Origin: an uncultured Pseudomonadales bacterium
GTDB taxonomy: Bacteria > Patescibacteriota > Microgenomatia > UBA1400 > PJMF01
NCBI GenBank assembly: GCA_964637295.1
Contig: CAZWWE010000001.1
Span: 121,808-185,807 of the forward strand
Direction: 5' to 3'
DNA: 64,000 nucleotides
Of this stretch, positions 4,811-53,200 are shown piece by piece. The notes beneath the pieces were generated by a model. It made no database searches. It saw only the letters and a program-made list of their open reading frames with translations, and had not been told where the DNA came from. Positions within the stretch are counted from its first letter, which is position 1, and the number at the start of each line of letters is the position of its first letter. The translations under genes and the position numbers were made by a program.

Positions 4811-4845
4811 AAATCCGTCACAAATTTATTTTTCTCTTCGGAAAT

Positions 4846-4913
4846 CACTTGAAGAAATACATTTCTTCAGGCGATTTAAATTCATCAAAAAAATAAATTT
4901 GCTCCTTTCTATA
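4846..4913 (-). promoter_or_regulatory. conserved leader module copy R1 upstream of nusA: TATAGAAAGGAGC box (4900-4913) plus 20-bp palindrome TGAAGAAAT-ac-ATTTCTTCA (4850-4869)
   Basis: Near-identical module is found upstream of groEL (29103-29172) and dnaK (8014-8080). The palindrome ends ~40 nt upstream of the nusA ATG. Confidence 0.45.
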
Positions 4914-5018
4914 TTTTTTTCTATTTTTTATTAGAATCTTAAGTATTTTGAAATAAGTCCGTTGAACGAGTGTGACATGACTTATTTTAAAGTACTGCAA
5001 GATGTCTGCTTATAAAAA

Positions 5019-5118: not shown

Positions 5119-5988
5119 TTAGAGACCAAGCTCTTTTAAATCCTCCAACAAAGATTTCTGTTCTCTACTTAATTTCTCTGGCACATCCACAATCAATCTC
5201 ACATATAAATCACCTTTACCGCGACTTTGCAAATGCTTAACTCCTTCATCTCGTAAACGAATCAAAGAATGAGAGGGCGTACCAGGTCTAACTTTGAGCT
5301 TAATTTTACCAGTGAGAGTCTCTATTTCAATTTGTCCACCTAGAGCAGCAGTGCTAAAACTAATTTTTTCATCAACAAAAACATCATAGCCATCACGCTT
5401 GAAACGCGGATGAGTGCCAACATCTATGGAAACATCAAAATCGGTAAAACGAATACGTGTTCCATTATTAGCACCAGCTGGCACCTTAATCTTTTGTCTT
5501 TTACCCTCAATTTCGACGTCTTTGGTGACACCATTAATCGCCTCCATGAATTCAATTTGGAGTGAATAATGTGGTCGACGTTTAGCTCGGCCACTAAAAC
5601 CGCCACCAAAAAATTGTTCAAAAATTTCAAAAGGATCGCCAAAATCAAATTCAGCGCCCTGACCACCACTAGCATAAGAAGACCAATTAAAACCACCAGC
5701 TTGCCCACTAAAACCACCAAAACCTCCAAAAGGCCCTTGCCCGCCGCCCATGCCAGAAGAAGGATCAAAGGCTGCATGGCCAAATTGATCATAAGTTTGC
5801 TTTTTCTTAGGATCGGATAAAACTTGATAAGCTTCGTTAATTTCTTTAAATCTGTCTTCAGCGCCGGTTTCTTTGTTACGATCGGGATGATATTTTAAGG
5901 CCATCTTGCGGTAAGCAGATTTGATTTCTGCGGCACTGGCAGTTTTGCTCACTCCTAAAACTTCGTAATAATCACGTTTAGCTGACAT
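5119..5988 (-). CDS. dnaJ: DnaJ-family co-chaperone (J domain + G/F region + C-terminal domains; no CxxCxGxG zinc-finger region)
   Basis: 289-aa ORF: J domain YYEVLGV…HPDRN, G/F-rich linker; last gene of the hrcA-grpE-dnaK-dnaJ cluster. No cysteine-rich repeats are present. Confidence 0.85.
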   Translation of the reverse strand: MSAKRDYYEVLGVSKTASAAEIKSAYRKMALKYHPDRNKETGAEDRFKEINEAYQVLSDPKKKQTYDQFGHAAFDPSSGMGGGQGPFGGFGGFSGQAGGFNWSSYASGGQGAEFDFGDPFEIFEQFFGGGFSGRAKRRPHYSLQIEFMEAINGVTKDVEIEGKRQKIKVPAGANNGTRIRFTDFDVSIDVGTHPRFKRDGYDVFVDEKISFSTAALGGQIEIETLTGKIKLKVRPGTPSHSLIRLRDEGVKHLQSRGKGDLYVRLIVDVPEKLSREQKSLLEDLKELGL

Positions 5989-7986: not shown

Positions 7987-8013
7987 AGCCTCATAAATTA
8001 ATTTTAAGACAGA

Positions 8014-8096
8014 GATGACTTGAATAAATACATTTCTTCACGTCATCAAAATGTCTAAAAAATCAATTTTTTCCTTTCTTTTTCAATTATATTTGT
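8014..8096 (-). promoter_or_regulatory. conserved leader module copy R3 upstream of dnaK: 34-bp palindrome GATGACTTGAATAAATACATTTCTTCACGTCATC (8014-8047), AGGAA box and TATAAT (8085-8096 region)
   Basis: Homologous to the modules upstream of nusA and groEL. The palindrome ends 28 nt upstream of the dnaK ATG. Confidence 0.4.
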
Positions 8097-8648: not shown

Positions 8649-8674
8649 AATTTTTAATTTCAATTAAAGAAAAT

Positions 8675-8844
8675 TTTTACTCTTGGTATTTTAATAAAGA
8701 CCGTAGAAAGCGCTGAACAAAAACAAAAAATAAGCAATCATGCTCATAAGCAGCGCTTTCTCCGAATGAGAAAAAGATTGTCAACTTCAAAAAGCAACAA
8801 TTTTCGTCGAATGTGTCTCTTATTAAAGTACCAAGAGTAAAAAA
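8675..8844. repeat. structured intergenic element family, copy A (~170 nt; 27-bp terminal inverted repeat enclosing conserved core with AAGATTGTYAAYTT…TTTTCGTCGAAYGTGTC)
   Basis: Terminal arms 8675-8701 and 8815-8844 pair (TTTTACTCTTGGTATTTTAATAAAGAC / GTCTCTTATTAAAGTACCAAGAGTAAAA). The core is homologous to copies at 23740-23900 and 42167-42335. It fills the hrcA-grpE intergenic gap. Confidence 0.6.
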
Positions 8845-8845
8845 C

Positions 8846-9562
8846 TTAATCCACCATGCTCTCGATCAAACCCTTAAAATATTTCATGATCGGTAAAACA
8901 TAAGAATAATCAAATCTCGTCGAACCTAACACGCCAAAACGACAATTATTGTTGGGTAATTCCACAAACATAATACTGATTTGGTCTAAATCTCTGTTGC
9001 CTAAATCTTGACCAAAAACTACTTTCACGGCATTTTCACTGTGATTGCTTTCAAAAATTTGATCCATCACTTGTTCTTCTTCGATCATGCGCAAAACTTG
9101 TCTGGTCAAATTGATATCATAAAATTCTGGCATCTGTAATAAATTGGAGTATCCAGAGTGATAAAGCTTACCATCTGGAGTCATAGCAATGCCCAAAGCA
9201 TGTGATTTTTCGGCTAAAACTCTCGATGTTTCATAAAGTAAATCTTCCATTTTGTCGCGATAACGCCAAATTTTTTCCTTAACTCCCACCTCATCAGCCA
9301 CCGAAAGTTCTTTTTCTTTGACTAATTCATTGATATATAAACGCATGGCTAAAGCAGTGGGCACACGACCTGCGCTAATGTGGGATTTAATCAAATAGCC
9401 TTGTTTTGTGAGATAAACCATTTCATTGCGAATGGTCGCTGGAGAAACACCAATATTATATTTCTTATCAATCGTTTCAGAACCAACTGGCATGCCAGTT
9501 TCAATAAATTCCTCGATAATAGCACGTAAAATTTGGATTTGGCGGGCAACTAAATCGATCAT
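8846..9562 (-). CDS. hrcA: heat-inducible transcription repressor HrcA (short form)
   Basis: 238-aa ORF with N-terminal winged-helix LTERQ-like motif (ARQIQILRAIIEEFIETGMPVGSETI), followed by grpE-dnaK-dnaJ. Confidence 0.8.
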   Translation of the reverse strand: MIDLVARQIQILRAIIEEFIETGMPVGSETIDKKYNIGVSPATIRNEMVYLTKQGYLIKSHISAGRVPTALAMRLYINELVKEKELSVADEVGVKEKIWRYRDKMEDLLYETSRVLAEKSHALGIAMTPDGKLYHSGYSNLLQMPEFYDINLTRQVLRMIEEEQVMDQIFESNHSENAVKVVFGQDLGNRDLDQISIMFVELPNNNCRFGVLGSTRFDYSYVLPIMKYFKGLIESMVD

Positions 9563-9565
9563 ATA

Positions 9566-9592
9566 TTAGCAATCATATCGATAGTTTGCTAA
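9566..9592 (-). promoter_or_regulatory. CIRCE-like HrcA operator (minus-strand read TTAGCAAAC-N9-GATTGCTAA) overlapping a TTGACA-N17-TATGAT promoter (9572-9600)
   Basis: Inverted repeat 4 nt upstream of the hrcA ATG. Promoter -35 at 9595-9600 and -10 at 9572-9577 with a 17-nt spacer imply a leaderless or very short-leader hrcA mRNA. The operator is embedded in the promoter. Confidence 0.5.
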
Positions 9593-9680
9593 TGTGTCAA
9601 GCAGAGACAAGAACGCTTTTTTAATAAAAAAGAGCTTGTCTCTAGATAAAAAAAGGATATAATTGATATACCATCATAAA

Positions 9681-22530: not shown

Positions 22531-23646
22531 TTATTCTATCATTTTTTTCTCGAAACGAATTTTAGAATTTCTGCTATGGCGAGCAATGGCTAAATTAATT
22601 AAATGATCTATCAATCTTCCATAAGTCATGCCAGTCGCCTGCATCATCAATTTGGGATACATGCTAATCTTGGTAAAACCAGGAATGGTGTTGATTTCAT
22701 TAAAAAATATCTCTCCACTGTCACTTAAGAAAAAATCTACTCTGGCCATGCCTTCAGCTTGACAAATTCTAAAAATTTTTTTGGATAAAGCTTGAATGGC
22801 TTGTTGTTGAGCTGGCAAAAGTGGAGCGGGAATTAACAATTGAGCTCCAGCTTCATCAAGATATTTGGCATCATAAGAATAAAAACCGTGTTTAGCATTG
22901 GGAATAATTTCGCCTACTTCACCGACGATTAATTCTTCTCGATTGCCCAGAACTGCACATTCAAGCTCTCTACCAGAAATAGCCGTTTCGATCAAAATTT
23001 TATGATCCACTGCAAAAGCTGCTTTCAAAGCTCTGTAAAATTGTTCCTGATTATTAACTTTATTGATCCCAACTGAAGAACCAGCACTCGCTGGTTTGAC
23101 AAAAAATGGCAACCCTAAAACTTGCGCAACTTGTTTAAAATCAATTGCTTGCCTTGTTGTTTGCTCAAAAGATAAATACTTGGCGACCTTAATCGCTGAC
23201 ATGATTGCTAATTTTTTAGTTATTTCTTTATCCATGGCAATGGCTGAAGCAAGCACATCTGGACCAACATAGGGTAAATTCAACATTTCTAAAAAACCCT
23301 GCATTTTGCCGTCTTCAGCAAAAGAACCGTGCATAATCGGAAAAACTACGTCGATTTTTTGATTGCCAGTGGGCAAAATTGCTTGACCGACGCCATCAGC
23401 CACACTCCAAGCAACTTCAGTAAAGCCAGTCTTTTTGAGAGAAATAAGATCTGGATCATCATCATGAGCTAAAAAATGTTGATAGTCGCTGTAAAAACGG
23501 AAAGTACCGTCTTTGGCCACTGCAAAAAGCAAGAGCTCATACTTGGTCAAATCTAAAGCAGCAATAATATTTTTGGCTGACACCAAAGACACTTCGTGTT
23601 CCACAGATTTACCACCACAAATCAAAGCCAAATAAGTTTTTGCCAT
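22531..23646 (-). CDS. ddl: D-alanine--D-alanine ligase
   Basis: 371 aa with ATP-grasp Ddl N-terminus (ICGGKSVEHEVSLVSA) and C-terminal motifs. Confidence 0.85.
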   Translation of the reverse strand: MAKTYLALICGGKSVEHEVSLVSAKNIIAALDLTKYELLLFAVAKDGTFRFYSDYQHFLAHDDDPDLISLKKTGFTEVAWSVADGVGQAILPTGNQKIDVVFPIMHGSFAEDGKMQGFLEMLNLPYVGPDVLASAIAMDKEITKKLAIMSAIKVAKYLSFEQTTRQAIDFKQVAQVLGLPFFVKPASAGSSVGINKVNNQEQFYRALKAAFAVDHKILIETAISGRELECAVLGNREELIVGEVGEIIPNAKHGFYSYDAKYLDEAGAQLLIPAPLLPAQQQAIQALSKKIFRICQAEGMARVDFFLSDSGEIFFNEINTIPGFTKISMYPKLMMQATGMTYGRLIDHLINLAIARHSRNSKIRFEKKMIE

Positions 23647-23739: not shown

Positions 23740-23900
23740 ATTTTCAATTTACTTATAACAAGCCATCGAAGGAGTTGCTTAACCAAATAAAAAACATTGC
23801 TTTGCTGGTAGACAACGACTTCGTTGAGTGAAGAAAAGATTGTTAATTTAAATAACAAACACTTTTAGCTGAACGTGCTTGTTCTAAGTGAATTGAAAAT
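23740..23900. repeat. structured intergenic element family, copy B (terminal arms 23740-23767 / 23877-23900 with 2-3 mismatches; conserved core)
   Basis: Core GAGTGAAGAAAAGATTGTTAATTTAAATAACAAAC…GCTGAACGTG is homologous to copies A and C. The right arm overlaps the stop of the xerC-like gene; the left end is 93 nt upstream of ddl. Confidence 0.55.
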
Positions 23901-24766
23901 TACAGCTCTTCAATTTTAATATTTGGCTGCATCTCTGGAGCTTCAATTAAATGAAGATATTTTTCTGTAGTAGTAATGCGTTTGTGACCCACTAGCTGAG
24001 AAACATAAACCAGAGGCGTACCTGCTTTTAATTGCTCAACGATGAAAGTATGACGCAAATCGTTAACTTTAGCATCTTTGATACCAGCTAGACGAAAATA
24101 GCGATCAATGGCGGTGCGAATGTTGCGTACTAAAAAAGGTCGACAAGTCTTGGTCAAAAATAAGGTTTTTTCTTTAGCTCGAGGGCGAAGTCTTAAATAA
24201 TCCAAAATAGCTTTTTTGGCGGCAGCATTCAGTGGAATACGACGGGCTTCTCTAGAATTTTGTGCCTGAATGTAAATTAGCTCCCTCTCTAAATCAATAT
24301 CTGTCATTTGCAAATAAGCTAATTCGCTGATACGCATGCCAGTTTGTAACAAAATTTCCACAATGGCGTGCATACGAGCATCAGCACGACAAGAATCGCG
24401 CAAAGCACGATATTCTAAACGAGATAAAATTCTCGGGGGAGTTTGATCAAATTTTGGCTGACTAATCTCCTCAGTTAAATTGTGTTCGATTAAACCTTCA
24501 CTCAAGCAAAAACGAAAAAAAGCTTTAATAGAGTTGATTTTGCGAGAAATTGATTTACTGCTATATCTTTGTTTTTTTAATAATTCTTTAAAATCTTCAA
24601 TATCAGTCGCCAACACTTCCGCTAACAAAGTTTTTGATCTTTTACTTAAAAAATCTGCCAACTGCTCAATATCTTTATTATAAGCAATCACAGTTGCGTG
24701 AGCTTTGCCATTATTTTGTAAGTGAGCAACGAACTTGACTTGCGCATCGACTAAGTTTGTGTGCAT
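23900..24766 (-). CDS. tyrosine site-specific recombinase (XerC/XerD family)
   Basis: 288 aa; C-terminal catalytic region with R…HxxR…Y (…LRHTFIVEQL…LVGHKRITTTEKYLHL). Confidence 0.75.
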   Translation of the reverse strand: MHTNLVDAQVKFVAHLQNNGKAHATVIAYNKDIEQLADFLSKRSKTLLAEVLATDIEDFKELLKKQRYSSKSISRKINSIKAFFRFCLSEGLIEHNLTEEISQPKFDQTPPRILSRLEYRALRDSCRADARMHAIVEILLQTGMRISELAYLQMTDIDLERELIYIQAQNSREARRIPLNAAAKKAILDYLRLRPRAKEKTLFLTKTCRPFLVRNIRTAIDRYFRLAGIKDAKVNDLRHTFIVEQLKAGTPLVYVSQLVGHKRITTTEKYLHLIEAPEMQPNIKIEEL

Positions 24767-26592: not shown

Positions 26593-26608
26593 AAATACTT
26601 TAAAAATG

Positions 26609-26677
26609 TTGCGGAACTAGGAGTCGAACCTAGCCTGTGGGATTATGAGCCCCACGTGCACCGTACACTATCCCGCG
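26609..26677 (-). tRNA. initiator tRNA-fMet (anticodon CAT) with reduced D-arm
   Basis: Minus-strand read CGCGGGATAGTGTACGGTGCACGTGGGGCTCATAATCCCACAGGCTAGGTTCGACTCCTAGTTCCGCAA. It shows the C1·A72 mismatch, three G-C pairs at the base of the anticodon stem (GGG/CCC), a CAT anticodon in loop CTCATAA, and T-loop TTCGACT. Confidence 0.7.
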
Positions 26678-26792
26678 TTTGCTTAACAAGCAATTCTCTT
26701 AGATAGGCTTGTTGTTAGAGTGAAATTATAACAAAATAAATTAGCATTATCAAGCAAGCTCGTGATAAAATACAGAATTGTCCATAAAATCA

Positions 26793-26866
26793 GGCGGGAT
26801 AGCTCAGTTGGTTAGAGCATCGGATTCATAAACCGAAGGTCCTGAGTTCGACTCTCAGTCCCGCTA
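26793..26866 (+). tRNA. tRNA with CAT anticodon (elongator tRNA-Met or tRNA-Ile2/lysidine)
   Basis: GGCGGGATAGCTCAGTTGGTTAGAGCATCGGATTCATAAACCGAAGGTCCTGAGTTCGACTCTCAGTCCCGCTA: canonical cloverleaf, D-arm identical to bacterial elongator Met type, anticodon loop TTCATAA. Confidence 0.75.
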
Positions 26867-26920
26867 CAAAACAGACACCGCTAAAAAAACATTATTACAA
26901 TATCGTTTAAAAAAGCTTAT

Positions 26921-29079: not shown

Positions 29080-29102
29080 TCACGATTTATTTTTTTCATC
29101 AG

Positions 29103-29172
29103 CGATCTCTTGAAGAGATATATCTCTTCAGGTGATCGAAGTTCTTCAAAAAATTAATCGCTCCTTTCTATA
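29103..29172 (-). promoter_or_regulatory. conserved leader module copy R2 between groES and groEL: 36-bp palindrome CGATCTCTTGAAGAGATA|TATCTCTTCAGGTGATCG (29103-29138) and TATAGAAAGGAGCG box (29159-29172)
   Basis: Homologous to the modules upstream of nusA (4846-4913) and dnaK (8014-8096). The palindrome ends 33 nt upstream of the groEL ATG. Confidence 0.45.
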
Positions 29173-29188
29173 CATTTATTTGTATTTA

Positions 29189-29611: not shown

Positions 29612-29638
29612 TTAGCAATAAGCAGTATTGATTGCTAA
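29612..29638 (-). promoter_or_regulatory. CIRCE-like HrcA operator upstream of groES (minus-strand read TTAGCAATC-N9-TATTGCTAA)
   Basis: 9-N9-9 inverted repeat ~75 nt upstream of the groES ATG; same arm consensus as the site upstream of hrcA. Confidence 0.5.
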
Positions 29639-37272: not shown

Positions 37273-37482
37273 ATGAAGAAAAATTATCAAACAGATCCAC
37301 GTTTGCTACAAGATCTTAATCAAAAAACCGCGCAAATTGAAGCCGCTTATTTAGCCAAACAGAGTAAAAAGCGTCAAAGAAAAGTTGAAAAAGAAGAGCT
37401 GAGTCAAAGATGGGTGGCTCCGCTATTATTGCTCATGACTCTCGTCACTGGTTTTTTAGTTTCACTCATTTTTAATCACTAA
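37273..37482 (+). CDS. small hypothetical protein with C-terminal TM helix
   Basis: 69-aa ORF; overlaps the 3' end of the convergent PBP gene by ~20 nt. Confidence 0.25.
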   Translation: MKKNYQTDPRLLQDLNQKTAQIEAAYLAKQSKKRQRKVEKEELSQRWVAPLLLLMTLVTGFLVSLIFNH

Positions 37483-39888
37483 ATTATCAAAAGAATTATC
37501 ACCACAAGCTTGTTTGGGTTCAGTGCCCTTGATAAAAATTTCCTCAGTCACTCGAGGACATTTAGCGCAAGGCAAAGTGCCAGTGGTGGCGCAAATTTTG
37601 ATTTTAATCATGTTTTCAGGTATCAAAAAACGATGAGGTTTTTGATCATCTAAAAGCAAAAGCATAATTTTATTCCAAATTGGTGAAGCCCCAGTTATTC
37701 CAGAGGCAACGTAGCTCATGGGACTATTGTCATTATTGCCCACCCAAGTAGCGACTAAACGATCGGTAGTATAACCAATCGTCCAATTATCTTTCATGCT
37801 ATTGGTGGTCCCCGTTTTAACAGCCACTTGTTGATTAGGAATATTGAGCACAGAAAAAGCCCCAAAAGCAGGCGTGCGTGCTCGATTATCAAGTAAAATA
37901 TCAGTGATCAAATAAGCCGCCTTAGGGCTCAATTCAAGATTTTCATAACAATTACTTGTTTCCAAAGCACATTGATTGCGATAAAGCAGTTCTCCCTTGT
38001 AATTACTGATTTCTAAAAATGGATTAAGGGTAACTGGATAACCAAGATTGGCAAAGGTACTATAAACAGTTGCCAACTCCGTCATTAGTACTTCGCCTGC
38101 ACCCAAAGTTAAAGATAAGCCAAAACGCTTTCTATCTTGCCAAGTCTTGATGCCCAAAGCCTCAGCCTTATCAATTAAATTATTGACGCCCAATTCCGCT
38201 GCTAATTTAACAGCTGGAATATTATAAGAAGAAGCTAAAGCCTCTCTTAGGGTCACGCGCCCATGAAAACGACCGTCATAATTTTTGGGCGCATAAGGTT
38301 TACTGCCAGGAATTTGATAAACCACGGGCGCATCCTCAATGATTGAGGCCGCATTTTTACCTTTTTCAAAAGCTAAGGCATAAGTCAGCGGCTTAATTGA
38401 TGAGCCTGGTTGACGCGGACGAATAGTCACATTAACTTGCCCATCATGCACAAAATCATAGTAATTAGCTCCACCAATCATCGCTAAAATTTCACCAGTT
38501 TTAGGATTGGTCACCAAAGCAGCGCCATTGCTAATTTTAAAATTTTTTAATTTTGCCACCTCCGCTGTTACAATTTCTTGTGCTTGATTTTGTAAATCAA
38601 GATCCAGGGATGTTTTCACTTCTAAACCACCCTTGGCCACCACTTCTTCACCGTATTTTAAAGCTAATAATTTTCTGATATACATCACAAAATGTGGTGC
38701 TTGAATATCAATTTTATCTTGATTAAAAACTAAAATTTCTTGCTTTGCCTGATCAGCTTGTAATTGGCTAATGTAACCGTCTTCAACCATGCGACGCAAA
38801 ACTTCAGCTTGTCTTTCATAGGCTAATTCCGGATTAGCCCCAAAAGGCGTGTAAGTTGAGGGAGCTTGAGGTAAACCCGCTAACAATGCCGCTTCTGCCA
38901 AACTCAAATTCCGAGCCGACTTATTAAAATAACGCCAAGAAGCTTCTTCAATTCCATAAGTTGAACCACCATAAGGCACGGTGTTAAGATACATTTCTAA
39001 AATTTGCTCTTTGCTATAAATACGCTCAGCAATTAAAGATAATAAAAGTTCACGAATTTTACGGCGATAGGTTTTTTCATTACTTAATAAACGATTTTTA
39101 ATTAATTGCTGAGTAATTGTCGAGCCTCCCTGCATCGTTTCACCTGCAAAATTTTTTAAGACTGCTCTAAAAATACCTTTGAAAGAAAATCCCCAGTGCT
39201 TATAAAAATTTTGATCTTCAATAGCGACGGTGGCATCTTTTAGATATTGCGAAACTAAAGGCAAAGCAATCAAAGTCCGGTTTTCATCTTCATAAATCCG
39301 ATAAAGTAAATTACCATTTCGATCCAAAATTCTTGTAGTTAAATTTTGTTCTTTATTAGATAAATCTGTAGGAGAAGGCAAATCTTTGATCGCCAAATCA
39401 TAAAACAAATAAGAGCTGCCTAAAAAAAGTAAAGTTAAAAAAACTGAAGTTAAATAAGAATAAAAAATGGGCTTTTTTTTTGGCCGACCAACTTTACGAT
39501 TTAAATGAAAAAATCTTAAAAGGCGAATTTTAAAAAAAATTAATTGATCATTAAATTTTTTGCTTTTTTTTTGCAAACGTTCTCTAAGCAAAACAAAAAA
39601 ACGCTGCCACTTAATATAAAAAGGCAATTTTTTTCGACCACGACCTTTTTTAATTTTTAGAAATTTTAAAATTAAAATATATTGATAGATCAATTTTTTT
39701 ATTGATTTATCTATTTTTTTAGACAGTTTCAAAAAATAATTTTTTAACCACCTTTTAAGTTTGATCGTAATTGGCAATTTGGGGCGACCACGCTTAATCA
39801 ATTTAGTTGAAGAAACAGCTTCAAAAACAATTTTTTCCTGCTTTAATCTATTTTTTTTAGCTTTTTGCGAATTATTTTTTTGAGCCAC
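37462..39888 (-). CDS. class A penicillin-binding protein (PBP1A type, transglycosylase + transpeptidase) with ~150-aa basic N-terminal tail
   Basis: GT51 motifs (EDQNFYKHWG, GGSTITQQL); transpeptidase domain. The N-terminal cytoplasmic region contains three GRPK/GRGRK repeats. Confidence 0.85.
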   Translation of the reverse strand: MAQKNNSQKAKKNRLKQEKIVFEAVSSTKLIKRGRPKLPITIKLKRWLKNYFLKLSKKIDKSIKKLIYQYILILKFLKIKKGRGRKKLPFYIKWQRFFVLLRERLQKKSKKFNDQLIFFKIRLLRFFHLNRKVGRPKKKPIFYSYLTSVFLTLLFLGSSYLFYDLAIKDLPSPTDLSNKEQNLTTRILDRNGNLLYRIYEDENRTLIALPLVSQYLKDATVAIEDQNFYKHWGFSFKGIFRAVLKNFAGETMQGGSTITQQLIKNRLLSNEKTYRRKIRELLLSLIAERIYSKEQILEMYLNTVPYGGSTYGIEEASWRYFNKSARNLSLAEAALLAGLPQAPSTYTPFGANPELAYERQAEVLRRMVEDGYISQLQADQAKQEILVFNQDKIDIQAPHFVMYIRKLLALKYGEEVVAKGGLEVKTSLDLDLQNQAQEIVTAEVAKLKNFKISNGAALVTNPKTGEILAMIGGANYYDFVHDGQVNVTIRPRQPGSSIKPLTYALAFEKGKNAASIIEDAPVVYQIPGSKPYAPKNYDGRFHGRVTLREALASSYNIPAVKLAAELGVNNLIDKAEALGIKTWQDRKRFGLSLTLGAGEVLMTELATVYSTFANLGYPVTLNPFLEISNYKGELLYRNQCALETSNCYENLELSPKAAYLITDILLDNRARTPAFGAFSVLNIPNQQVAVKTGTTNSMKDNWTIGYTTDRLVATWVGNNDNSPMSYVASGITGASPIWNKIMLLLLDDQKPHRFLIPENMIKIKICATTGTLPCAKCPRVTEEIFIKGTEPKQACGDNSFDNLVIKNE

Positions 39889-39932: not shown

Positions 39933-42140
39933 TTAAATCGGACAAGCACCGCTGTCACATTTGAGATGTTCTAAACTAATATCTTCTAATAATTCATTGT
40001 CTTCATCACTAATTTCATTAATCACTTGCATAAATTGGCCAATGGTCACTGCCTCTTCTGGCTGATATTCATAAGCTGTGACGTCAATCTTGGGCATCAC
40101 ACTACAAGTTTTAATTAATGGTTGATATTTACGAATCATATTAGAAAATTTACGATAGGAAACTTTTTCCGGATCATATTTCAAAGTGTATGAAACCTGA
40201 TTACCCTTATCTTCTGGCAAAGGTTGACCAGCTTCATCAACTCCCACAATCCAATATTTTTCGATCAACATCAGCCACTTATATTGTTCTTCCGGCGTTG
40301 CTTCGCTGGCCGTAATCAGTTTGTCATTCATCCCTAAACTACAAATTTCTGGCTGAGTAGGAAAACCAATGACCGTTGTACCCTGATAACTTTTCAGTTC
40401 TTTACTTGGATAGCCTAATTTCTGATATTTTTTGACCAAGGGATCGTCACTACTAAACTGCACCCAACGAATGTATTCGCGCATCGCAGGTAAATGTGCT
40501 CCTTCAGACAGACTAAAAAGTTTAGAAGTCGTCCCAGCCGGCTTGATAGTAGTGTTAGTGTGCGGCACATTAACTCCAAGTTTTTTGGCATAACTCATAG
40601 ATTCATCTTGAACAGCTCTTTTAAATCTAGCAATAGTCATCCAAAAATCTTTAGTTTTTTCTTCATCGATTAAATCACGAAAGCCATAACCAAAAGCATT
40701 CCAAGCATATTCATGAATACCAGTCATGCCTACTCCAATGCGATTGGTTCTTTTGACTTCACGCGAATACAAGCTGTCCATGTAAGTATTAACTCTCATC
40801 AAAGCACGAGTTGCCACGCGAAAAGCTTCTTCCGCAGCTTCAACATCTGGAGCATGATAAGGCACCACATCAGCAATTACACAGTATCCACCAAGCATAT
40901 TAAGAGTAATTTCACCACAAGGATTGGGAATTTGAGTGTAATATTTCGCTCCAGCATGTCTCGCCACTTCGGCTAACATTTTGACGGTTTTTTTCATCGG
41001 TGCAAATTTTTTACTTTTGGCATAGCGCCCATCTAAATAACCATCAAAACCCTCATCGTTTTGCACTAACTTGTGCTGATTAACCAAACCAGGTTCACCA
41101 GTTTTGTCAAAATAAGAAGCTCGCATAATCGCATCTAAAACCTTAATTGAATGCTGACTACGTTGCTTCCAAAATTTTTCATCCACCGCCACGCTGTTAT
41201 TAGCAGACCATAAAAAACCACCTTTTTTGATCGAAATAAACTCAAAAATATCTGGATCAGTCCAAGTTTTAACGGCAATACGGGCGGCGCGGCGCGCGCC
41301 GCCCACCAAAACACATTCTGATAAATAATGATCAACGTACAAAGCTTGCTTCCAAGGTTTCATTCCCGAACCTTTGATTGTGGCTACTTTTTGAATCGCT
41401 TTGATTAAAGGTCTTGGCCCTGAAGCCGGGCGACCCTGCATACCACCAATAGGCGAGCCTTTAGCTCTCACTTTACTAAAATCTAAAATCAGCGTATCGT
41501 TTTTGAATTTGCGCTCGTAAGCCATTTCTTCGATTTTTTCGACTGCTTGCGCCCAACCTTCTCTCGTATCCGGAATTTCAAACCAGTGGGCATTTTCATA
41601 CTTATGACGAGCTTCACGAGTGCTTTCATCATCACCCCACACAAAATCAGCGTGAGCGTCACTTAAAACACAACGCACGATCGGCATGTAATCCCAATCC
41701 ACCACCATTAAAGCATCGTCATAAGCTCGCCCCACTCCTGAGCCATTTAACAATAAATAAAATAACAAGAATGAAGAAGAAGCCGTACTGCAATTGGTAA
41801 ACACTTCCATGTTGCGTTCCGGCTGACTTTCGTCACCATGCTGTAAATGACGGCCACTCATCAAAAGCGAAGCATTGGCGATGTGTTTGCGCAATAATTC
41901 ATATTCACCCTGACGATCTTTTTTGAATTTTTCTGGTAATAAAGCAGCATTGCCCAAAGCCACGCGATGCGCCACATCTGCCCAAGTTTCTAATTCACCG
42001 TTTTGTTTAGTACGCAAAATAGTGCGCTTAGCTACAGCTTCACCCAAACCTTTGGAAAGTTTACGATCTATGAATTTCATTTTTTTCTTTGGTAGCTGAT
42101 TGTTAGCAATTTTTTGCGCCATCATATGCAAATCTTTCAT
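39933..42140 (-). CDS. nrdJ: class II (adenosylcobalamin-dependent) ribonucleotide reductase, monomeric type
   Basis: 735 aa, NPCGEI active-site motif, C-terminal Cys pair (…CDSGACPI); adjacent nrdR. Confidence 0.8.
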   Translation of the reverse strand: MKDLHMMAQKIANNQLPKKKMKFIDRKLSKGLGEAVAKRTILRTKQNGELETWADVAHRVALGNAALLPEKFKKDRQGEYELLRKHIANASLLMSGRHLQHGDESQPERNMEVFTNCSTASSSFLLFYLLLNGSGVGRAYDDALMVVDWDYMPIVRCVLSDAHADFVWGDDESTREARHKYENAHWFEIPDTREGWAQAVEKIEEMAYERKFKNDTLILDFSKVRAKGSPIGGMQGRPASGPRPLIKAIQKVATIKGSGMKPWKQALYVDHYLSECVLVGGARRAARIAVKTWTDPDIFEFISIKKGGFLWSANNSVAVDEKFWKQRSQHSIKVLDAIMRASYFDKTGEPGLVNQHKLVQNDEGFDGYLDGRYAKSKKFAPMKKTVKMLAEVARHAGAKYYTQIPNPCGEITLNMLGGYCVIADVVPYHAPDVEAAEEAFRVATRALMRVNTYMDSLYSREVKRTNRIGVGMTGIHEYAWNAFGYGFRDLIDEEKTKDFWMTIARFKRAVQDESMSYAKKLGVNVPHTNTTIKPAGTTSKLFSLSEGAHLPAMREYIRWVQFSSDDPLVKKYQKLGYPSKELKSYQGTTVIGFPTQPEICSLGMNDKLITASEATPEEQYKWLMLIEKYWIVGVDEAGQPLPEDKGNQVSYTLKYDPEKVSYRKFSNMIRKYQPLIKTCSVMPKIDVTAYEYQPEEAVTIGQFMQVINEISDEDNELLEDISLEHLKCDSGACPI

Positions 42141-42166
42141 TTTTAATTACTTTATTGATACCAAAA

Positions 42167-42335
42167 ATTAATTTAGTCCTTTAACATAAGACCATTTGTA
42201 GGAGCTGAATCCAAACATCAATAAAAAATCATGTTTATAGACAGCGACTGCAATGAGTGTAGAAGAAGATTGTTAACTTAAATAAGCTAATAATTTTCGT
42301 CTAACGTGTCTTATGTTAAAGGACTAAATTAATTC
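42167..42335. repeat. structured intergenic element family, copy C (perfect 27-bp terminal inverted repeat AATTAATTTAGTCCTTTAACATAAGAC … GTCTTATGTTAAAGGACTAAATTAATT; conserved core)
   Basis: Arms 42167-42193 and 42309-42335. Core GAGTGTAGAAGAAGATTGTTAACTTAAATAAGCTAATAATTTTCGTCTAACGTGTC. It lies between nrdR (overlapping its stop) and nrdJ. Confidence 0.6.
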
Positions 42336-42781
42336 TCTTTTAATTTTTTAATTTCATTTTCAAAGTCGGCTAATTCTCCAAAATCGCGATAAACACTAGC
42401 AAAAAGCAAATAAGAAAGTGGATCTAATTTTTTCAAGCGATTGAGTACTAAATTGCCAATCTCCCAACTCTTAACTTCAAAAACTTCTCTTTGACGCAAT
42501 TTGGCTTCTACATCCTCAATCAATAATTCTATTTGCAACATGCTCACTGGTCTTTTCCAAGTAGCTTTGATCAAGCCTCTTTTAATTTTTTCACGATCAA
42601 AATTTTCCTTAACCCCATCTTTTTTAATAACTTTTAAATCTACTCCTTCTACTTTTTCATAAGTCGTAAAGCGTTTTTTGCAAACTTCGCAAACTCTTCT
42701 GCGTCTGACGCTATCCCCATTATCTGTTTCTCTAGAATCAATGACTGCTGTTTCACTACTTTTACAAAAAGGACACTGCAT
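42329..42781 (-). CDS. nrdR: transcriptional repressor NrdR
   Basis: MQCPFCKSSETAVIDSRETDNG…RRRRVCEVCKKRFTTYE: zinc ribbon plus ATP-cone. Confidence 0.9.
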   Translation of the reverse strand: MQCPFCKSSETAVIDSRETDNGDSVRRRRVCEVCKKRFTTYEKVEGVDLKVIKKDGVKENFDREKIKRGLIKATWKRPVSMLQIELLIEDVEAKLRQREVFEVKSWEIGNLVLNRLKKLDPLSYLLFASVYRDFGELADFENEIKKLKEN

Positions 42782-45335: not shown

Positions 45336-47717
45336 ATGAATCCATTTTTATTGGCAGAAAGAAAAAAAGCCAAAAAACATCGTCGCCAAATCGCTGACAA
45401 AGGCTTTGCTGTCATTGAACAAATTAAAAATCATCGTTTGTATCAATTAATTCTATTGAGCATTGTTTTAATTTTTTTTGGTGTGCTAATTTATTTATAC
45501 AAACAACTACCTTCTCCCAACAATTTGACCGCTAATGAAAATTTTCCCGTCAGTACACAGATTTTTGATCGTCATGGCACCTTGCTTTATGAAATTTATG
45601 GCCAAGAAAATCGTATTCCCATCAAGATTGGCGATTTACCAGATCACGTTTTACAGGCTACAGTGGCCATTGAAGATAAAAAATTCTATTCACATCATGG
45701 CCTAGATTTAAGTGGTTTAATTCGTGCCAGTTTAAAAAATTTCCGCGGTGGTAATTTGCAAGGCGGCTCAACCATTACTCAACAATTGGTCAAAAATGCC
45801 TTATTAAGCAAAGAAAAAACTTTGCAGAGAAAAATCAAGGAAGCCGTGCTGGCCCTCATGACCGAAATTATTTACAGTAAGCAAGAAATTTTAGAAATGT
45901 ACTTAAATTATATTTCTTATGGCGGCACAGCCGTTGGCATTGAAGCTGCGGCTAATAAATATTTTAATAAATCTGCCAAAGATTTAAGTTTAGCTGAAGC
46001 CAGTCTTTTAGCGGGTTTACCTCAAGCTCCAACTATTTATTCACCTTTTGGTTCTAATCCCGAAAAAGGAAAAAATCGCCAAAAAGAAGTTTTGCGTCGC
46101 ATGGTTGAAGATGGTTACATTAGTCAAGCAGAAGCCGATCAAGCCAGTAACGAAATTCTAGCCCTGGCACTTTCTAAAACTGACATCAAGGCTCCACATT
46201 TCGTTTTTTACATCAAAGATTTGCTTTATGCTAAATATGGTGAAAAAACTGTTGAAACAGGAGGTTTGCGGGTCACCACTACGCTTGATTTAAGCTTGCA
46301 AGAAACCGCTCAAGCATCTTTATCAGGCGAGCTGAAAAAACTCAGTCATTTAAAAGTGGGTAACGGCGCAGCCTTAGTAAGCAAACCAAATACTGGCGAA
46401 ATTTTAGCGATGATTGGCTCTAAAGACTACTTTGATAATGAAGCCGACGGTCAAGTTAACGTCACTTTGTCTCTCAGACAACCGGGCTCTTCCATTAAAC
46501 CAATTATGTACGCCACTGCCTTTGCGAAAAAAACTCTCAATCCCGGCACGATGCTTTTAGATATCCCCACCTGTTTTCGCGTTGCTGGACAAAAAGATTA
46601 CTGTCCCAAAAATTACACTGGCGCATTCATGGGCCCAGTCACTATTCGTCAGGCTTTGGGCAACTCACTGAATATCCCTGCTGTCAAAGCTTTAGCCACG
46701 ATTGGCATTGAGACTTTCATTAAACAAGCTCAACTGATGGGCATCAATACTTGGACTGATCCGGCTAATTATGGCCTATCTTTAACTCTGGGAGGGGGCG
46801 AAGTTAAAATGATTGAGCTAGCAGAAGCTTTTGGTGTCTTAGCTAATCAGGGCGTACGTTTGCCTCTGACTGGAATTTTAGAAATCAGCAATTATAAGGG
46901 CGAAGTTTTGGAAAAATATGATCCTGAACAAGCTCGAGCTGACGTCGCCTTCTTAACTGAAAATGAGTTAGTGTTGGAACAAAATCAAGCCAAAAGAGTG
47001 ATGGAACGTGCACCAGCCTACTTGACCAATCATATTATGCAAGATAATAATGCTCGAGTTAACGCTTTTGGCTCAAATTCAAAGTTAGTCATCAAAAATA
47101 AAATTGTTTCTGCCAAAACTGGCACCACCAATGATCTCAAAGATAACTGGACAGTCGGCTACACTCCAGATTATCTGACTATTGTCTGGGTAGGTAATAA
47201 TAATAGTCAATCTATGAGTTATTTAGCTTCTGGTATTACTGGTGCGGCTCCAATTTGGCATGATATTATGACTTGGATTTTACAAGATCAAGAAGTGAGC
47301 TGGATAGAAAAACCAAACGATGTCAAAATTGCCAATCTTTGTTTAACGGGCATGCCAGCAAAAGCTGGTCTTGGAACTTTATTAATTAATGACCCCAATC
47401 ATCAAGATAAAAATTTAAGTCTAACTAATACTGATACTGATCCGATTGCCAGTTGTGAAAGCAAGGGCCAAGAATTATATTGGGAAAACTCCAAACCAAG
47501 CTATGCAGGGACTTTTCGCAAAGCATATTGGATTCGCAGTAGCACTGGCTTGCCGCCCAAAGAAGGTGAGGAAGCAACTGATTTGCAACTTGAAGAACAT
47601 AGCTTTTTTTATGATCCTTTAACCAAACTTTATTGTGCTGATTGTAACCGCCCCACTGACGAAACTGGCAAAATTATTTATGAAGCACAAATCGTTGATG
47701 TCAAAAATATTTTTTAG
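45336..47717 (+). CDS. class A penicillin-binding protein (second PBP1A-type paralogue)
   Basis: EDKKFYSHHG, GGSTITQQL, transpeptidase SxxK/SxN/KTG region. Confidence 0.85.
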   Translation: MNPFLLAERKKAKKHRRQIADKGFAVIEQIKNHRLYQLILLSIVLIFFGVLIYLYKQLPSPNNLTANENFPVSTQIFDRHGTLLYEIYGQENRIPIKIGDLPDHVLQATVAIEDKKFYSHHGLDLSGLIRASLKNFRGGNLQGGSTITQQLVKNALLSKEKTLQRKIKEAVLALMTEIIYSKQEILEMYLNYISYGGTAVGIEAAANKYFNKSAKDLSLAEASLLAGLPQAPTIYSPFGSNPEKGKNRQKEVLRRMVEDGYISQAEADQASNEILALALSKTDIKAPHFVFYIKDLLYAKYGEKTVETGGLRVTTTLDLSLQETAQASLSGELKKLSHLKVGNGAALVSKPNTGEILAMIGSKDYFDNEADGQVNVTLSLRQPGSSIKPIMYATAFAKKTLNPGTMLLDIPTCFRVAGQKDYCPKNYTGAFMGPVTIRQALGNSLNIPAVKALATIGIETFIKQAQLMGINTWTDPANYGLSLTLGGGEVKMIELAEAFGVLANQGVRLPLTGILEISNYKGEVLEKYDPEQARADVAFLTENELVLEQNQAKRVMERAPAYLTNHIMQDNNARVNAFGSNSKLVIKNKIVSAKTGTTNDLKDNWTVGYTPDYLTIVWVGNNNSQSMSYLASGITGAAPIWHDIMTWILQDQEVSWIEKPNDVKIANLCLTGMPAKAGLGTLLINDPNHQDKNLSLTNTDTDPIASCESKGQELYWENSKPSYAGTFRKAYWIRSSTGLPPKEGEEATDLQLEEHSFFYDPLTKLYCADCNRPTDETGKIIYEAQIVDVKNIF

Positions 47718-49732: not shown

Positions 49733-50263
49733 ATGTGGAAAAAGAAAAGCTGGCCAAAATTTAATTTATTTCAAAAAATTTTTGCTAATCAAAAAATCGC
49801 CTTGTTGATCAGTTCTTTGGACAAATTCTTTATTAAATTACCTCACTTGCCTAAAAAACTCAGGCTACTGATCAGCCGTTTTGTGCCTTTCTTAGCCTTG
49901 ATTTTCGGTTTAATTGGCCTAGTAGCGAGCATATTGGCTGGTTCTTTTGTCGTTCTGGGCTTGCTCGCCGGCGAATGGGGCTTTTTAGCTGAAAATGCCT
50001 TCAACTTTGGGATAACTTTGCTAAGCGCCCTCCTGCTACTAAAATCTTTCAAACCGCTGCGGGCGGGCAACGCTGTGGGTTGGATTTATCTTTTTTGGTC
50101 AGAAATTTTGGAAGTCATCAACTTGATCGTGCGCACCATCAATCAAGAAAGTGGTTTGATTTGGAATTTAGTCATAATCATCTTGAGTTTTTACTGCTTA
50201 TTTGAAATTGGACAATTCTACGTGTATAAGAAAGAGAAGGAAAAAGGATTAAATACAATTTGA
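49733..50263 (+). CDS. hypothetical membrane protein (3-4 TM)
   Basis: 176-aa ORF convergent with and overlapping the 3' end of the giant gene. Confidence 0.35.
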   Translation: MWKKKSWPKFNLFQKIFANQKIALLISSLDKFFIKLPHLPKKLRLLISRFVPFLALIFGLIGLVASILAGSFVVLGLLAGEWGFLAENAFNFGITLLSALLLLKSFKPLRAGNAVGWIYLFWSEILEVINLIVRTINQESGLIWNLVIIILSFYCLFEIGQFYVYKKEKEKGLNTI

Positions 50264-53200
50264 TTCTTAAGTTTTTCATATAAAGAATTTAGAAGTATTT
50301 CTTCATCATTTAAGTTATCACTATTTGTTTCAAATGATTCTAGACCAAAAACATCTAGTCCAATACTTTCTAAAAAGCTCTTACCATCATAGATTGTTTT
50401 TTCTGTGCCGTTTATATAGTCACTTAGATGATCATTTCCTATTCTTAACAACATTCTGTTTATAGCAGCCATGTTTTTTACAAATAATCTCATATTCAAA
50501 GGAAATTCTAGCTTAAGTCTATCTGTTTCTTGCATCATGGCATTAAAAAATGAAATTTGTGAATTACTATCTGTATCGCGTTTGATTAGCTTTTCTTTAA
50601 GAGCAACTCTTAAATACGAAGCGTAGGCTTTCCAATAATTAAATAGTCCACTTTTTCTAACTTGATTACTGTTTAATAGATATCTTGTCAAATTAACAAA
50701 TTTATGAAAATCAGTTTCTTGATTAGACAAGAGAATTTTTATTAAATCAACTTCTTCTTGAGAAAGAACTAAATAATAACTTCTGTCGATAACTGAAACA
50801 TTGGATAAGGCTTCATCGGCCATAATATTTCCAATATGCAAATCAGAGTGCAAAATATAAGCTGTTTTACCATCTGCCAAGGTAACAGGGTAATTGAGAT
50901 GTTTGACATAATCGGTAACGATATCAGAAATCAATTCTTCAATACGCTTCGCTCTCTCATTATCCTGATTATTCACATGATGGTTTTCGCTAATTAATTC
51001 ATTTTCAAAATTTGCAATTAGATTTTTTAAAGTATCGCCCTCAACATAATCTTCAATTTTAATCCAACGGTTATAAATTTCGTGCTTGTTTGAAGTATTG
51101 AAAGTAAAACCAAACCTCGATTGATGTGGATATAATTGATTAAACAGGATGTCATTCGAGATAAAATTTTTATCTTGTATGTCTTCAGTATTCCATTGCT
51201 CTAGAGTATTAATTAATCTTTGAACAACTTCGTAATTTTTCTTATTACTTTTATCTAACTTCTGCAAATCATTGACAACTGACTCCACTAAAGTTCTCGT
51301 TTCTGCTACATCTATAATCACATTGGGATTACTGATTTTAAGAACTTTCATAGTTATCTCATCGTTCGTTGGATTGAGAATTTCCACTAGATAAGTTGTA
51401 TTAATTGATCCACCTCCAATTTTTTTAATGATTCTGATATTGGGTAATAATTCTTTGAGCTGCTTTGCTTGCGCCAAATTATAATCAATTTCTTCTTGAG
51501 AAGCTGCATTAGCTGGATTTTGTAAGGAATCAATGGCTGTTTCTGCACTTTGAAATAAATTCGCCATATATAAATTTGAGGCATTATCATAAACACTTAA
51601 AAATTCTTGCTGCAACTCTTTTGGTAAATCAAAATATTGACCAAATACTTGCAAAAACCGCACTCCCAAGCTGCCCAAGCTTTTAGCCAATTCAACAATG
51701 AATTGACCGGTCTGAATCTTACCGTTATTGCTTAAGTTTTGAATTGGCTCTCTTTTAATACCAAACTTTTTTAAACTTCTAAGAGCAATATTCTCAAATT
51801 GAGCGTTGAGATCAAAGACAAACTGATAATTACTGTTTTTGTTTATAACAATATTTTTATCTTGATTGAATAAATTTGTTAGCATTTTTCTAACTTTTTC
51901 TCGATAGTCCTCTGCAACGTCTGATGGCAAATTTTCACTGATTATTGTTTCAACTGCATAATTATTACTGACCGCTCTAGGATTTCCCTGCAAAAAACTA
52001 TCAGCTAGGGCTCTAGAAATACCCAATTCAATGCGCGTTGAACCTTCAACCTGGGATAAAGTTGAGCTAATAATATTTTTTAAAAGAGGTTTTAAATTTA
52101 ATTCTTCAGAATCTTCAAGCTGATCAGTTAAAAATGTAGCTATTTTGAGATGATTATCCTCATTCAATAGTAATTTTTCAGATAGCAATTTGGCAATAAA
52201 AGCTGTTTTTTCTAATTTTGATAAATTATAGAAACTCGCCACAAATTCCTCAAAAGTTGGAAAAGACGTTAATCCTGGACCAGACAAGTTGCCATTTTCA
52301 TCAACAAAAACGCTTGTTTTTTTGTGAATTAAGTAACTCGCTATTATAGAAAAAGCTTGCAAACTGCCGGAGTCTCTATCATAAGTTAATAGCGATGAAT
52401 AATATTTTGCTAAATAGTATTTAACTTTTTCGTGATCTCCTTTTATTGAGGCTTCAAAAAATCCGAGTAAATCTGTCTCATTCATATTAGTAATATAGTT
52501 TGAAACTAGAGTATCAACAGCAACTGTTCTGTCTAAACTCTTTTGCTCCGACCCCAAACTTTGATTTAAACTCTGATCTTCAGAAATAATTTTATATTCC
52601 TCAAAAGTTTTGACATGACTTTCTAAGAAAAAATGTATGTATTGATTATGTCCATTTTCTAAAGATTGTTTGAGAAAATCATACGCCTCATTAAAAGGTA
52701 ACTCTTGAAAGAGCTTAATCGCAATTTCTTCAAGAATTTGATTTTTAGTTTGCAATGAAGGGAAATTTTTTTCAAGAAAATTATACAAATCAACTCCTTG
52801 TAAATTTTTGGATTTTTCTTCAACAAACTTTAATTCATAGCTGATCAAGGGTTTTAATAAATTTGCTTCAACTTCATTGGTTCCAAAATAATATTCTTCA
52901 CCAGCTGTTCGATCTATGGCCGAAGCATAACGTCCGTTAGCTAATTCAAAAAACCATCTTAATTGAGTCGATACAGAAAAATTTATTGTTTCAGGAGCAA
53001 AATGAATACCTGGTCGAAAACCACTAATGTCTTGATTGATATCAGAAATATTTAAAGTGTTTAAATAGTTTTGCAATTCTTGGATGATCGTAAAATTACT
53101 AAACAAAGAAAAATTTTTATTAGACAATGGAGTATTTTTGCAAGCTTCTCTGATTTCATCAAAATATTCAGCTAAAATCTGCCATTCTTTGTCGTAAATT

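Follow-up and report, generated by a model that had tools for sequence, protein, structure and literature searches.

A small family of structured palindromic insertions in Patescibacteria, with one copy between hrcA and grpE

Introduction

A long and stable hairpin between two genes of a heat-shock operon raises the question of whether it belongs to the regulation of that operon or came from elsewhere. Such a hairpin, here called copy A, lies between hrcA and grpE in a 64-kb stretch of contig CAZWWE010000001.1 (64,000 nucleotides, positions 121,808 to 185,807; hereafter the window, to whose first letter all coordinates refer). The original prediction noted that differential mRNA processing or stability between hrcA and grpE-dnaK would be useful at this place. 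Few known genomes are as streamlined as those of Patescibacteria (candidate phyla radiation, CPR), for which there are, to our knowledge, hardly any descriptions of interspersed repeats or regulatory RNAs. Our results revealed that copy A is a member of a small, lineage-restricted and undescribed family of structured insertions of about 170 nt. On balance we lean towards reading this family as a new MITE-like insertion (MITE, miniature inverted-repeat transposable element), which is co-transcribed with its neighbours, serves as an RNase III-type processing module and has been retained by the host in at least some copies.

Results and discussion

Structure of copy A and of the family

The arm TTTTACTCTTGGTATTTTAATAAAGAC (8675-8701) occurs a single time in the window, where none would be expected by chance. 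Its partner lies at 8815-8843; in a repeat search the two were 96% complementary over 24 nt, with 122 nt between the arms. When the RNA was folded in the sense of the operon, the arms 8815-8843 and 8674-8701 formed a closing stem of 27 pairs (P1) around two inner hairpins, P3 (8770-8808) and P2 (8702-8764). The 186-nt stretch containing copy A reached -58.6 kcal/mol, compared with -31.8 +/- 3.5 kcal/mol in 200 dinucleotide shuffles (z = -7.6), none of which equalled it. The hairpin predicted between hrcA and grpE is thus borne out. Between it and the hrcA stop codon there is a single base (8845); the ATG codons at 8648 and 8627 are 26 and 46 nt away, respectively, and a U-rich tract, UUUUCUUU, follows 3' of P1. 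A covariance model, R1, was built from 13 sequences of the family, and pair statistics were taken from a model alignment of 14 sequences. The parts of copy A are:

8674..8844, minus strand: copy A, the complete element (P1 plus three-way-junction core) in the hrcA-grpE spacer; R1 score 149.9 bits, E = 3e-31
8815..8843, minus strand: 5' arm of P1, from the fold and the empty-site comparison; its outermost T-run is the ancestral TAA-TTTTTT flank of empty sites
8674..8701, minus strand: 3' arm of P1, from the fold; the arm quoted in the original prediction
8770..8808, minus strand: P3, the 5' inner hairpin, from alignments and pair table; the most conserved sequence of the family (…AGTTRACAATCTT…), with conserved 1x1 mismatches
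8702..8764, minus strand: P2, the 3' inner hairpin, from alignments, pair table and fold; its lower stem covaries and its distal part is variable

Across the family, P1 is near-perfect and 19-28 bp long, mostly 23-28 bp. Its inner ~15 bp are homologous among copies (…yCTTTAAyAtaAGAC / GTCTtaTrTTAAAGr…), and its outer 6-12 bp are site-specific and often made up of the upstream gene's final codons or its stop codon. The core enclosed by P1 is conserved, non-palindromic and asymmetric, and its two hairpins differ in kind, P3 being conserved in sequence and P2 covarying. Standard pairs occupied 94.8% of the cells of the alignment, and both sides had changed in 32 of the 51 pairs. The covariation score was 0.483, against 0.162 after shuffling (0/500) and 0.056-0.091 when the partners were slid; RNAalifold agreed. 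Most of this signal was supplied by P1. Compensatory changes were also seen in P2, where GCUG/CAGC is replaced by GUUG/CAAC in copy C of the window (see below) and by ACUG/CAGU in the related contig L002; four different lower-stem sequences occur, all of them paired. P3 is near-invariant and has three 1x1 mismatches (A·C, A·C and C·U) at 3-bp spacing in all 14 copies.

Distribution of the family

The wording "copy A" had implied that further copies exist, and they do. A filter-free R1 search of the window returned exactly three intact copies and one deleted relic, all on the gene strand. Besides copy A these are:

42164..42336, minus strand: copy B, at the junction of nrdR (42781..42329) and a class II ribonucleotide reductase-like gene (42140..39933); R1 score 173.7 bits
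23738..23903, minus strand: copy C, divergent, at the junction of a xerC/D-like recombinase gene (24766..23900) and ddl (23646..22531); R1 score 104.9 bits, E = 7e-21
4933..5007, minus strand: relic copy D, at the dnaJ|nusA junction; R1 score 23.4 bits, E = 0.003; fold z = -4.5

Copy B, seen as an inverted repeat at 42166-42334, has its inner sequence in common with copy A but a completely different outer stem; its P1 has a perfect 27-bp core and overlaps the nrdR stop codon. P1 of copy C likewise overlaps a stop codon, together with the ancestral TAATTTTCA flank. Relic D retains P1-like arms and the junction segments CACTCG…TTCAACGG, and has lost P3 and most of P2. It is a dead second member of the family at the far end of the same heat-shock operon.

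Outside the window, looking up identical HrcA proteins gave many records of the same species and the diverged contig L002, which carries a 65-70% identical element at the same site. Pattern scans found true copies in L031-L036 among species-representative genomes and in L037, L041, L043, L045 and L047 among metagenomes. The related contigs add six further gene junctions, all in close Patescibacteria relatives. Beyond hrcA|grpE, the family was found at nrdR|nrdJ, xerC|ddl, thiolase|DUF35-like, dnaX|ybaB, RNase J-like|penicillin-binding protein (PBP), upstream of hisS, in a divergent promoter region (L031/L041) and, in L035, antisense to its neighbours. The downstream genes are unrelated to each other (grpE, nrdJ, ddl, DUF35-like, ybaB, PBP, hisS and a membrane protein gene), and the next start codon lies 24-92 nt past the element. 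Copy number appears to be low, the strict pattern having matched the complete 853-kb genome CP011212.1 once only.

The family is confined to a genus-level clade of Patescibacteria. HrcA homologs were labelled as Patescibacteria group, Candidatus Pacebacteria and Woesebacteria. The entries L031 (CP011212.1), L032 (CAZFIY01) and L033/L034 (CAZIBP01) are titled "candidate division TM6" or "uncultured Pseudomonadales". These titles are probably taxonomic mislabels, as the HrcA and thiolase proteins are 85-100% identical to Patescibacteria- or Pacebacteria-labelled proteins.

Searches beyond this clade gave no further members. Three pattern scans of viral contigs produced chance matches only, lacking flanking stems or model matches, and BLAST of phage and plasmid collections gave no match to the element. 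When the whole window was searched against Rfam 15 at the gathering threshold, two tRNAs were returned and nothing at the element; in E-value mode, copies A and B gave just miRNA and snoRNA noise far below threshold. Membership in an Rfam 15 family (including 6S, Y RNA-like, HEARO, twister, hammerhead, pistol, hatchet and the riboswitches) was therefore rejected, none reaching its gathering threshold. Copy A has one stop-free frame, and no frame is open across the copies. No transposase, reverse transcriptase or nuclease gene was found near the copies in the examined loci, nor were larger autonomous relatives, sought as pairs of family ends 0.5-5 kb apart. In full-text searches we did not find a description of the element in the literature on repeats, MITEs or structured RNA of Dependentiae, Patescibacteria or CPR.

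Empty sites and the origin of the closing stem

The hrcA-grpE spacer was compared in eight related lineages whose HrcA is 70-92% identical to that of the window. In all eight it is 2-56 nt long and has no element:

L059/L060: HrcA 92% identical, spacer 48 nt
P0008: HrcA 92% identical, spacer 29 nt
L061: HrcA 89% identical, spacer 3 nt
L048: HrcA 88% identical, spacer 19 nt
L051: HrcA 85% identical, spacer 2 nt
L063: HrcA 85% identical, spacer 9 nt
L054: HrcA 81% identical, spacer 14 nt
L057: HrcA 70% identical, spacer 56 nt

An R1 search of the contigs of these relatives (~280 kb) gave no copy anywhere; L059 comes from the same ~751-kb genome that carries the family elsewhere (L041). At the thiolase|DUF35-like junction of a mevalonate operon, the element is present in L034 and L036 and absent from three relatives 84-87% identical, which have a 2-nt spacer, a 30-nt spacer and a 4-nt overlap, respectively. 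Because the hrcA-grpE spacer is empty in eight lineages, copy A is an acquired insertion and not an ancestral feature of the operon; it entered the spacer in an ancestor shared by the window species and its closest kin. Because the family is present at unrelated junctions and absent from hrcA-grpE in relatives, it is not heat-shock-specific.

These observations divide the original prediction. It was right that a real structure, supported by covariation, lies inside a predicted transcription unit, and that the 27-bp mRNA duplex is a plausible processing site. The implied idea that the element was placed there for the sake of differential hrcA and grpE-dnaK expression does not agree with its occurrence at unrelated junctions and the eight empty spacers. 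By analogy with other repeats, mRNA processing would be a reasonable consequence of the element rather than the reason for its position. Lack of structure conservation in relatives had been named as an outcome that would speak against the prediction. The structure is kept where the element is present (L032, L002), but the element itself is missing from the site in most relatives. For annotation, this means that the hairpin should not be read as a heat-shock regulatory element.

At three sites (hrcA, thiolase and xerC), the outer 5' arm of P1 proved to be pre-existing host flank. At hrcA it is TAA-TTTTTT, the T-run after the gene; at the thiolase gene it consists of the last codons, GGAATCAAAACTTAG in L034 and GGAAAATCTTAG in L036 (Gly-Ile/Gly-Lys); and at xerC it is the TAATTTTCA downstream of the gene. 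The 3' arm is an exact inverted copy of each lineage's own flank, including mirror-image indels between L034 and L036. Since the 3' arm mirrors a lineage-specific flank, P1 has been extended by inverted duplication of the upstream flank and its arms evolve in concert. Template switching within quasipalindromes would be expected to produce such behavior, as would very strong selection for a ~25-bp duplex, singly or together. Template switching is known to perfect quasipalindromes (PMC7202029), and the arms probably evolve in concert through this process, within the palindrome and at the DNA level.

Conservation, subfamilies and exchange between lineages

The element was compared with the coding DNA around it in four pairs (percent identity):

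Window and L032: four-fold sites 47-58%, coding DNA 76-87%, element A 95% (163/171)
Window and L037: four-fold sites 37-51%, coding DNA 68-83%, element B 92%
L034 and L036: four-fold sites 40-46%, coding DNA 73-75%, element 75%
Window and L002: four-fold sites 50-82%, coding DNA 78-95%, element A 65%

In the comparisons with L032 and L037, identity was highest over the element and fell immediately downstream of it. The paralogs A, B and C of the window genome are just 61-68% identical, so the conservation between species does not come from homogenisation. As silent sites are saturated and the two orthologous pairs still share 92-95% identity, at least some copies have been retained by selection and are not decaying junk. 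Other copies have been replaced, have diverged or have decayed, as relic D shows.

The cores fall into subfamilies: a "B-type", 85-98% identical across five loci in several genomes, an "A-type" consisting of copy A and the L032 copy, and divergent singletons. Different core subfamilies were observed at the same site with a similar P1, namely in L034:2583-2756 and L036:3075-3243, and in copy A and L002:6376-6553. The L034 core agrees more closely with copies at other loci (94% identity) than with its positional counterpart in L036 (76%). This suggests that cores may have been replaced by gene conversion or by repeated insertion into the same site. Furthermore, nt ~270-717 of hrcA (window ~8846-9290) are 100% identical to L002:5930-6376, in genomes that are otherwise ~80-86% identical. 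The identical tract runs up to the 5' edge of the element and stops precisely there; the element itself shares only 65% identity with that of L002, and the pattern suggests a recent recombination between lineages that was bounded by the element.

Orientation

The element is sense to the flanking or downstream genes at eight of the nine distinct chromosomal sites, and gene context is the sole directional evidence for the strand. GC skew is positive in element orientation at most sites, including that of the antisense copy, L035; with one exception either way, it does not discriminate between an orientation set by replication and one set by transcription. A preference for the antisense strand that seemed present at first was no longer visible in 14 sequences, which gave 6:6 mismatches in P1, a negligible energy difference and balanced wobbles in P3.

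Comparison with known elements

The Correia elements of Neisseria (CREE/NEMIS) would be the closest working analogy. They are palindromic intergenic repeats of ~100-160 bp whose presence at a particular site differs between close relatives, and are co-transcribed as long hairpins which are bound or cut by RNase III and alter the expression of neighbouring genes (PMC2649163; PMC2229807). However, Correia elements occur in hundreds of copies, with conserved terminal inverted repeats of 26 bp, a duplicated TA target and an IHF site. In the present family the termini are not conserved, no target duplication is seen, an asymmetric three-way junction forms the core, the number of copies appears low and the orthologs are strongly constrained. 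Membership in the Correia family was rejected, there being no sequence similarity, no TA duplication and a different taxon.

The REP, REPIN, BIME and ERIC repeats are also extragenic, hairpin-forming, found inside operons, long-lived and vertically inherited, and are thought to act as mRNA stabilisers or punctuation (PMC2229807). A REPIN consists of two REPs of ~35 nt in inverted orientation, its stem being conserved and its loop free, and is mobilised by a RAYT gene; in our family it is the non-palindromic core, in the place of the loop, that is conserved and not the stem, and neither a RAYT-like open reading frame (ORF) in the window nor a RAYT-like gene in the other examined sequence was seen, so this class was rejected as well. 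Rickettsia palindromic elements are small palindromic insertions in a streamlined genome which can overlap the ends of coding regions (PMC10969869), a likeness that extends to our copies. However, they lie in frame inside genes and are translated, whereas here no frame is conserved and the upstream gene is overlapped in its final 1-4 codons only; this class was rejected too.

Retron msr-msd non-coding RNAs resemble the family in their a1/a2 inverted repeats, which vary between systems, in a conserved 5' hairpin with a variable 3' hairpin, and in length. They were rejected because no reverse transcriptase lies beside any copy at any of the nine sites and the candidate branch-point G is A in copy A and the L032 copy; the presence of several copies per genome is a further difference. 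In rRNA processing stems and intervening sequences, RNase III removes a long terminal duplex that surrounds a structured RNA. The likeness lies in the duplex of 5' and 3' ends around a structured RNA; however, those stems belong to rRNA operons, whereas our element is mobile or patchy, stands between protein-coding cistrons and has a putative cleavage only.

In its empty orthologous sites, subfamilies and relic, the distribution of the family resembles that of MITEs. Membership among them was rejected: the family lacks conserved repeats at the very ends, only the inner part of P1 being homologous, and direct target-site duplications, and it differs further in its asymmetric core, flank-built stem, apparently low copy number and strong conservation between species. 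The element is an undescribed variant of the palindromic intergenic insertion theme. For a bacterial palindromic repeat, two of its traits are unusual: an asymmetric three-way junction, in place of the arms, as the conserved part, and a stem extended by inverted host flank with arms that evolve as mirror images.

Several further candidates were rejected. An intrinsic terminator is not indicated, since the scan was negative at copies A and B, the stem ends are A/U-rich and a U-tract is lacking after most copies. A riboswitch or RNA thermometer does not agree with unrelated downstream genes, a near-perfect P1 of 23-28 bp and the distance to the next start codon. Integron attC sites show the opposite pattern (conserved centre, variable stem ends), and the neighbours here are housekeeping operons with conserved synteny. 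The boxA-like CUUUAACA sits inside a duplex, and a hammerhead core was rejected on anatomy. An internal promoter was not supported either: at usable spacing, the TTGACA/TTAACA of P3 lacks a -10 partner, and copy A was negative in the scan.

Proposed function and alternative explanations

If the family is a co-transcribed processing module, copy A would be transcribed from the promoter of hrcA, which is controlled by CIRCE (controlling inverted repeat of chaperone expression), as part of a hrcA-grpE-dnaK-dnaJ mRNA. In this mRNA it would form a ~25-bp duplex, which is as long as the substrates of bacterial RNase III; the predicted stem of 23-28 bp has the length of about 20 bp or more that such a site calls for. 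RNase III or another factor binding double-stranded RNA may then act on the duplex, so that the mRNA would be cut between the cistrons or a strong structural barrier would arise. The upstream and downstream messages would thereby be uncoupled, and a three-way-junction RNA of ~120-140 nt would be released. In organisms poor in regulators, processing of this kind would be a simple and portable way to uncouple cistrons. The element is a repeat tolerated by a streamlined genome, at some sites more conserved than the protein-coding genes, and located within operons of essential function, namely those for chaperones, ribonucleotide reductase, synthesis of the cell wall, the mevalonate pathway and the clamp loader of replication.

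A number of observations weigh against this proposal. The gene for RNase III, rnc, was not found in the examined sequence, which is a small part of the genome only. The core folds at -30.9 kcal/mol in sense and -32.3 kcal/mol in antisense, sense being the more stable in 5 of 14 sequences; A·C and G·U mismatches in P1 stand at 6:6, and the conserved sense G·U pairs of P3 are matched by equally conserved A·C, which are G·U in antisense. Such a balance of pairing fits a palindrome acting at the DNA level as well as it fits an RNA. The L035 copy is antisense to both neighbours, and the L031/L041 site is a divergent promoter region and not a space between cistrons, although the element there is sense to the downstream gene. 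Conservation is uneven (65% between A and L002, 75% between L034 and L036 at shared sites) and a deleted relic exists; not every copy is maintained. In addition, no consistent flanking direct repeat was found in 13 copies, the flanks being related as inverted repeats. Nor was a gene for a transposase, reverse transcriptase or nuclease found nearby.

A serious but rather less probable explanation is a purely selfish palindromic mobile element, whose single-stranded or cruciform hairpin would be read at the DNA level by a trans-acting enzyme (HUH/Y1-type or another recombinase). The conserved core would then be the recognition module of the enzyme, transcription would be incidental and effects on hrcA or grpE would be side effects; a mobilisation mechanism without target-site duplication, so far undescribed, would be indicated. 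This would account for patchy presence and absence at identical sites, for subfamilies of different "age" (B-type copies, divergent singletons, a deleted relic) and for an element tree that is incongruent with the genome tree, as L032 is farther from the window genome-wide than L002 and yet has the 95% identical element, against 65%. P1 mismatches without strand bias, equally good folding of both strands and arms that change in mirror image, indels included, as in palindrome template switching (PMC7202029), point in the same direction, and with a GC skew that is positive even at L035 the orientation could follow replication. However, the A/L032 and B/L037 orthologs are more conserved than the flanking coding DNA, although four-fold sites are saturated, which is unlike a dead insertion; paralogs within one genome are not homogenised, CP011212.1 gave a single strict-pattern match, and conserved terminal inverted repeats at the true ends, a target-site duplication and a candidate mobilising gene are all missing. 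That the copies are genes for a new functional RNA, with the core as the point of the element, is unlikely in our opinion. It might be a trans-acting small RNA excised via the long stem or a new class of self-cleaving ribozyme, and the near-invariant P3 with its non-canonical 1x1 mismatches in all 14 copies, the compensatory changes in P2, the very high conservation between species and a P1 that is conserved inside and free outside, like a processing stem around a mature RNA, would suit either. Bacterial self-cleaving ribozymes also have a multi-copy intergenic distribution. Nevertheless, no Rfam ribozyme or small RNA matched, by-eye inspection gave no hammerhead, twister or similar core motifs, the element has no promoter or terminator of its own, its strand is not assignable from pairing, and its copies can decay in a family confined to one genus-level clade.

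A dedicated cis-regulator of the heat-shock operon, setting the ratio of hrcA to grpE-dnaK as an RNA thermometer, attenuator or terminator, is highly improbable and has been largely refuted by the empty sites. The position between an autoregulated repressor gene and chaperone genes invites the idea, all the more as copy B likewise follows a repressor gene, nrdR, and as a U-rich tract stands after P1 of copy A. Such a tract does not follow P1 in most copies, though; the terminator scan was negative at copy A, a perfect 25-bp stem would be unable to switch or melt at physiological temperature, and the element occurs at unrelated junctions but not in the spacers of eight related lineages. A broader proposal, possible but doubtful, would make the family a new kind of structured RNA that is mobile in Patescibacteria and retained by the host, and that would insert at cistron boundaries and build its processing stem from inverted upstream flank, the near-invariant core being a self-cleaving or self-processing ribozyme or a platform for a conserved factor. 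If so, operon mRNAs of minimal genomes would be punctuated by an RNA element instead of promoters and terminators.

The heat-shock operon and other features of the window

Gene names in the operon around copy A were taken from precomputed Pfam labels on identical proteins:

9566..9600, minus strand: predicted strong sigma-70-like operon promoter TTGACA-17-TATGAT (9600..9572) with an overlapping CIRCE-like inverted repeat (9566-9592), from a sequence scan
8846..9562, minus strand: hrcA, the upstream cistron; ORF, PF01628
8151..8648, minus strand: grpE, the downstream cistron, with its start at 8648 or 8627; PF01025
7986..6055, minus strand: dnaK; ORF, HSP70 label
5988..5119, minus strand: dnaJ; ORF, DnaJ label

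The promoter at 9600..9572 is the likely source of the transcript containing copy A, and the scan for promoters and terminators predicted none between hrcA and grpE, in or beside copy A. Three in-frame start candidates exist for grpE (TTG 8663, ATG 8648 and ATG 8627). Relatives without the element align from the Met at 8627 (MKNKN…), and relatives with it keep the upstream ATG too; the ancestral start may be ATG 8627 (MKNKNN...) rather than 8648. CIRCE-like repeats (TTAGCAATC-N9-…TTGCTAA, 3 mismatches to the consensus) were found at 9566-9592, overlapping the hrcA promoter, and at 29612-29638, upstream of groES. The element itself was rejected as a CIRCE operator (TTAGCACTC-N9-GAGTGCTAA), both of these sites being outside it.

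A second, unrelated motif was observed on the minus strand at 4841-4928, 29102-29187 and 8012-8062. Its hairpin is conserved (…YCACYUGAAGARAUNUAUYUCUUCARGUGAUY…) and stands 26-32 nt upstream of the nusA, groEL and dnaK start codons, and the nusA and groEL leaders are alike over ~90 nt, with TATAGAAAGGAGC… upstream of the hairpin and AAAAAUAAAUYNGUGACGSA downstream. The motif could be a promoter and 5' untranslated region module common to genes that are highly expressed or belong to the heat-shock response. Two paralogous class A PBP-like genes lie in inverted orientation at 37462-39888 (minus strand) and 45336-47717 (plus strand) and explain the long 71% inverted repeats. A giant ORF of 4587 aa extends over 50218-63981 on the minus strand and contains a run of 12-nt tandem repeats at 61384-61503. 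Finally, two divergent tRNA-Met(CAT) genes ~115 nt apart at 26608-26867 are the sole Rfam or ARAGORN matches in the window.

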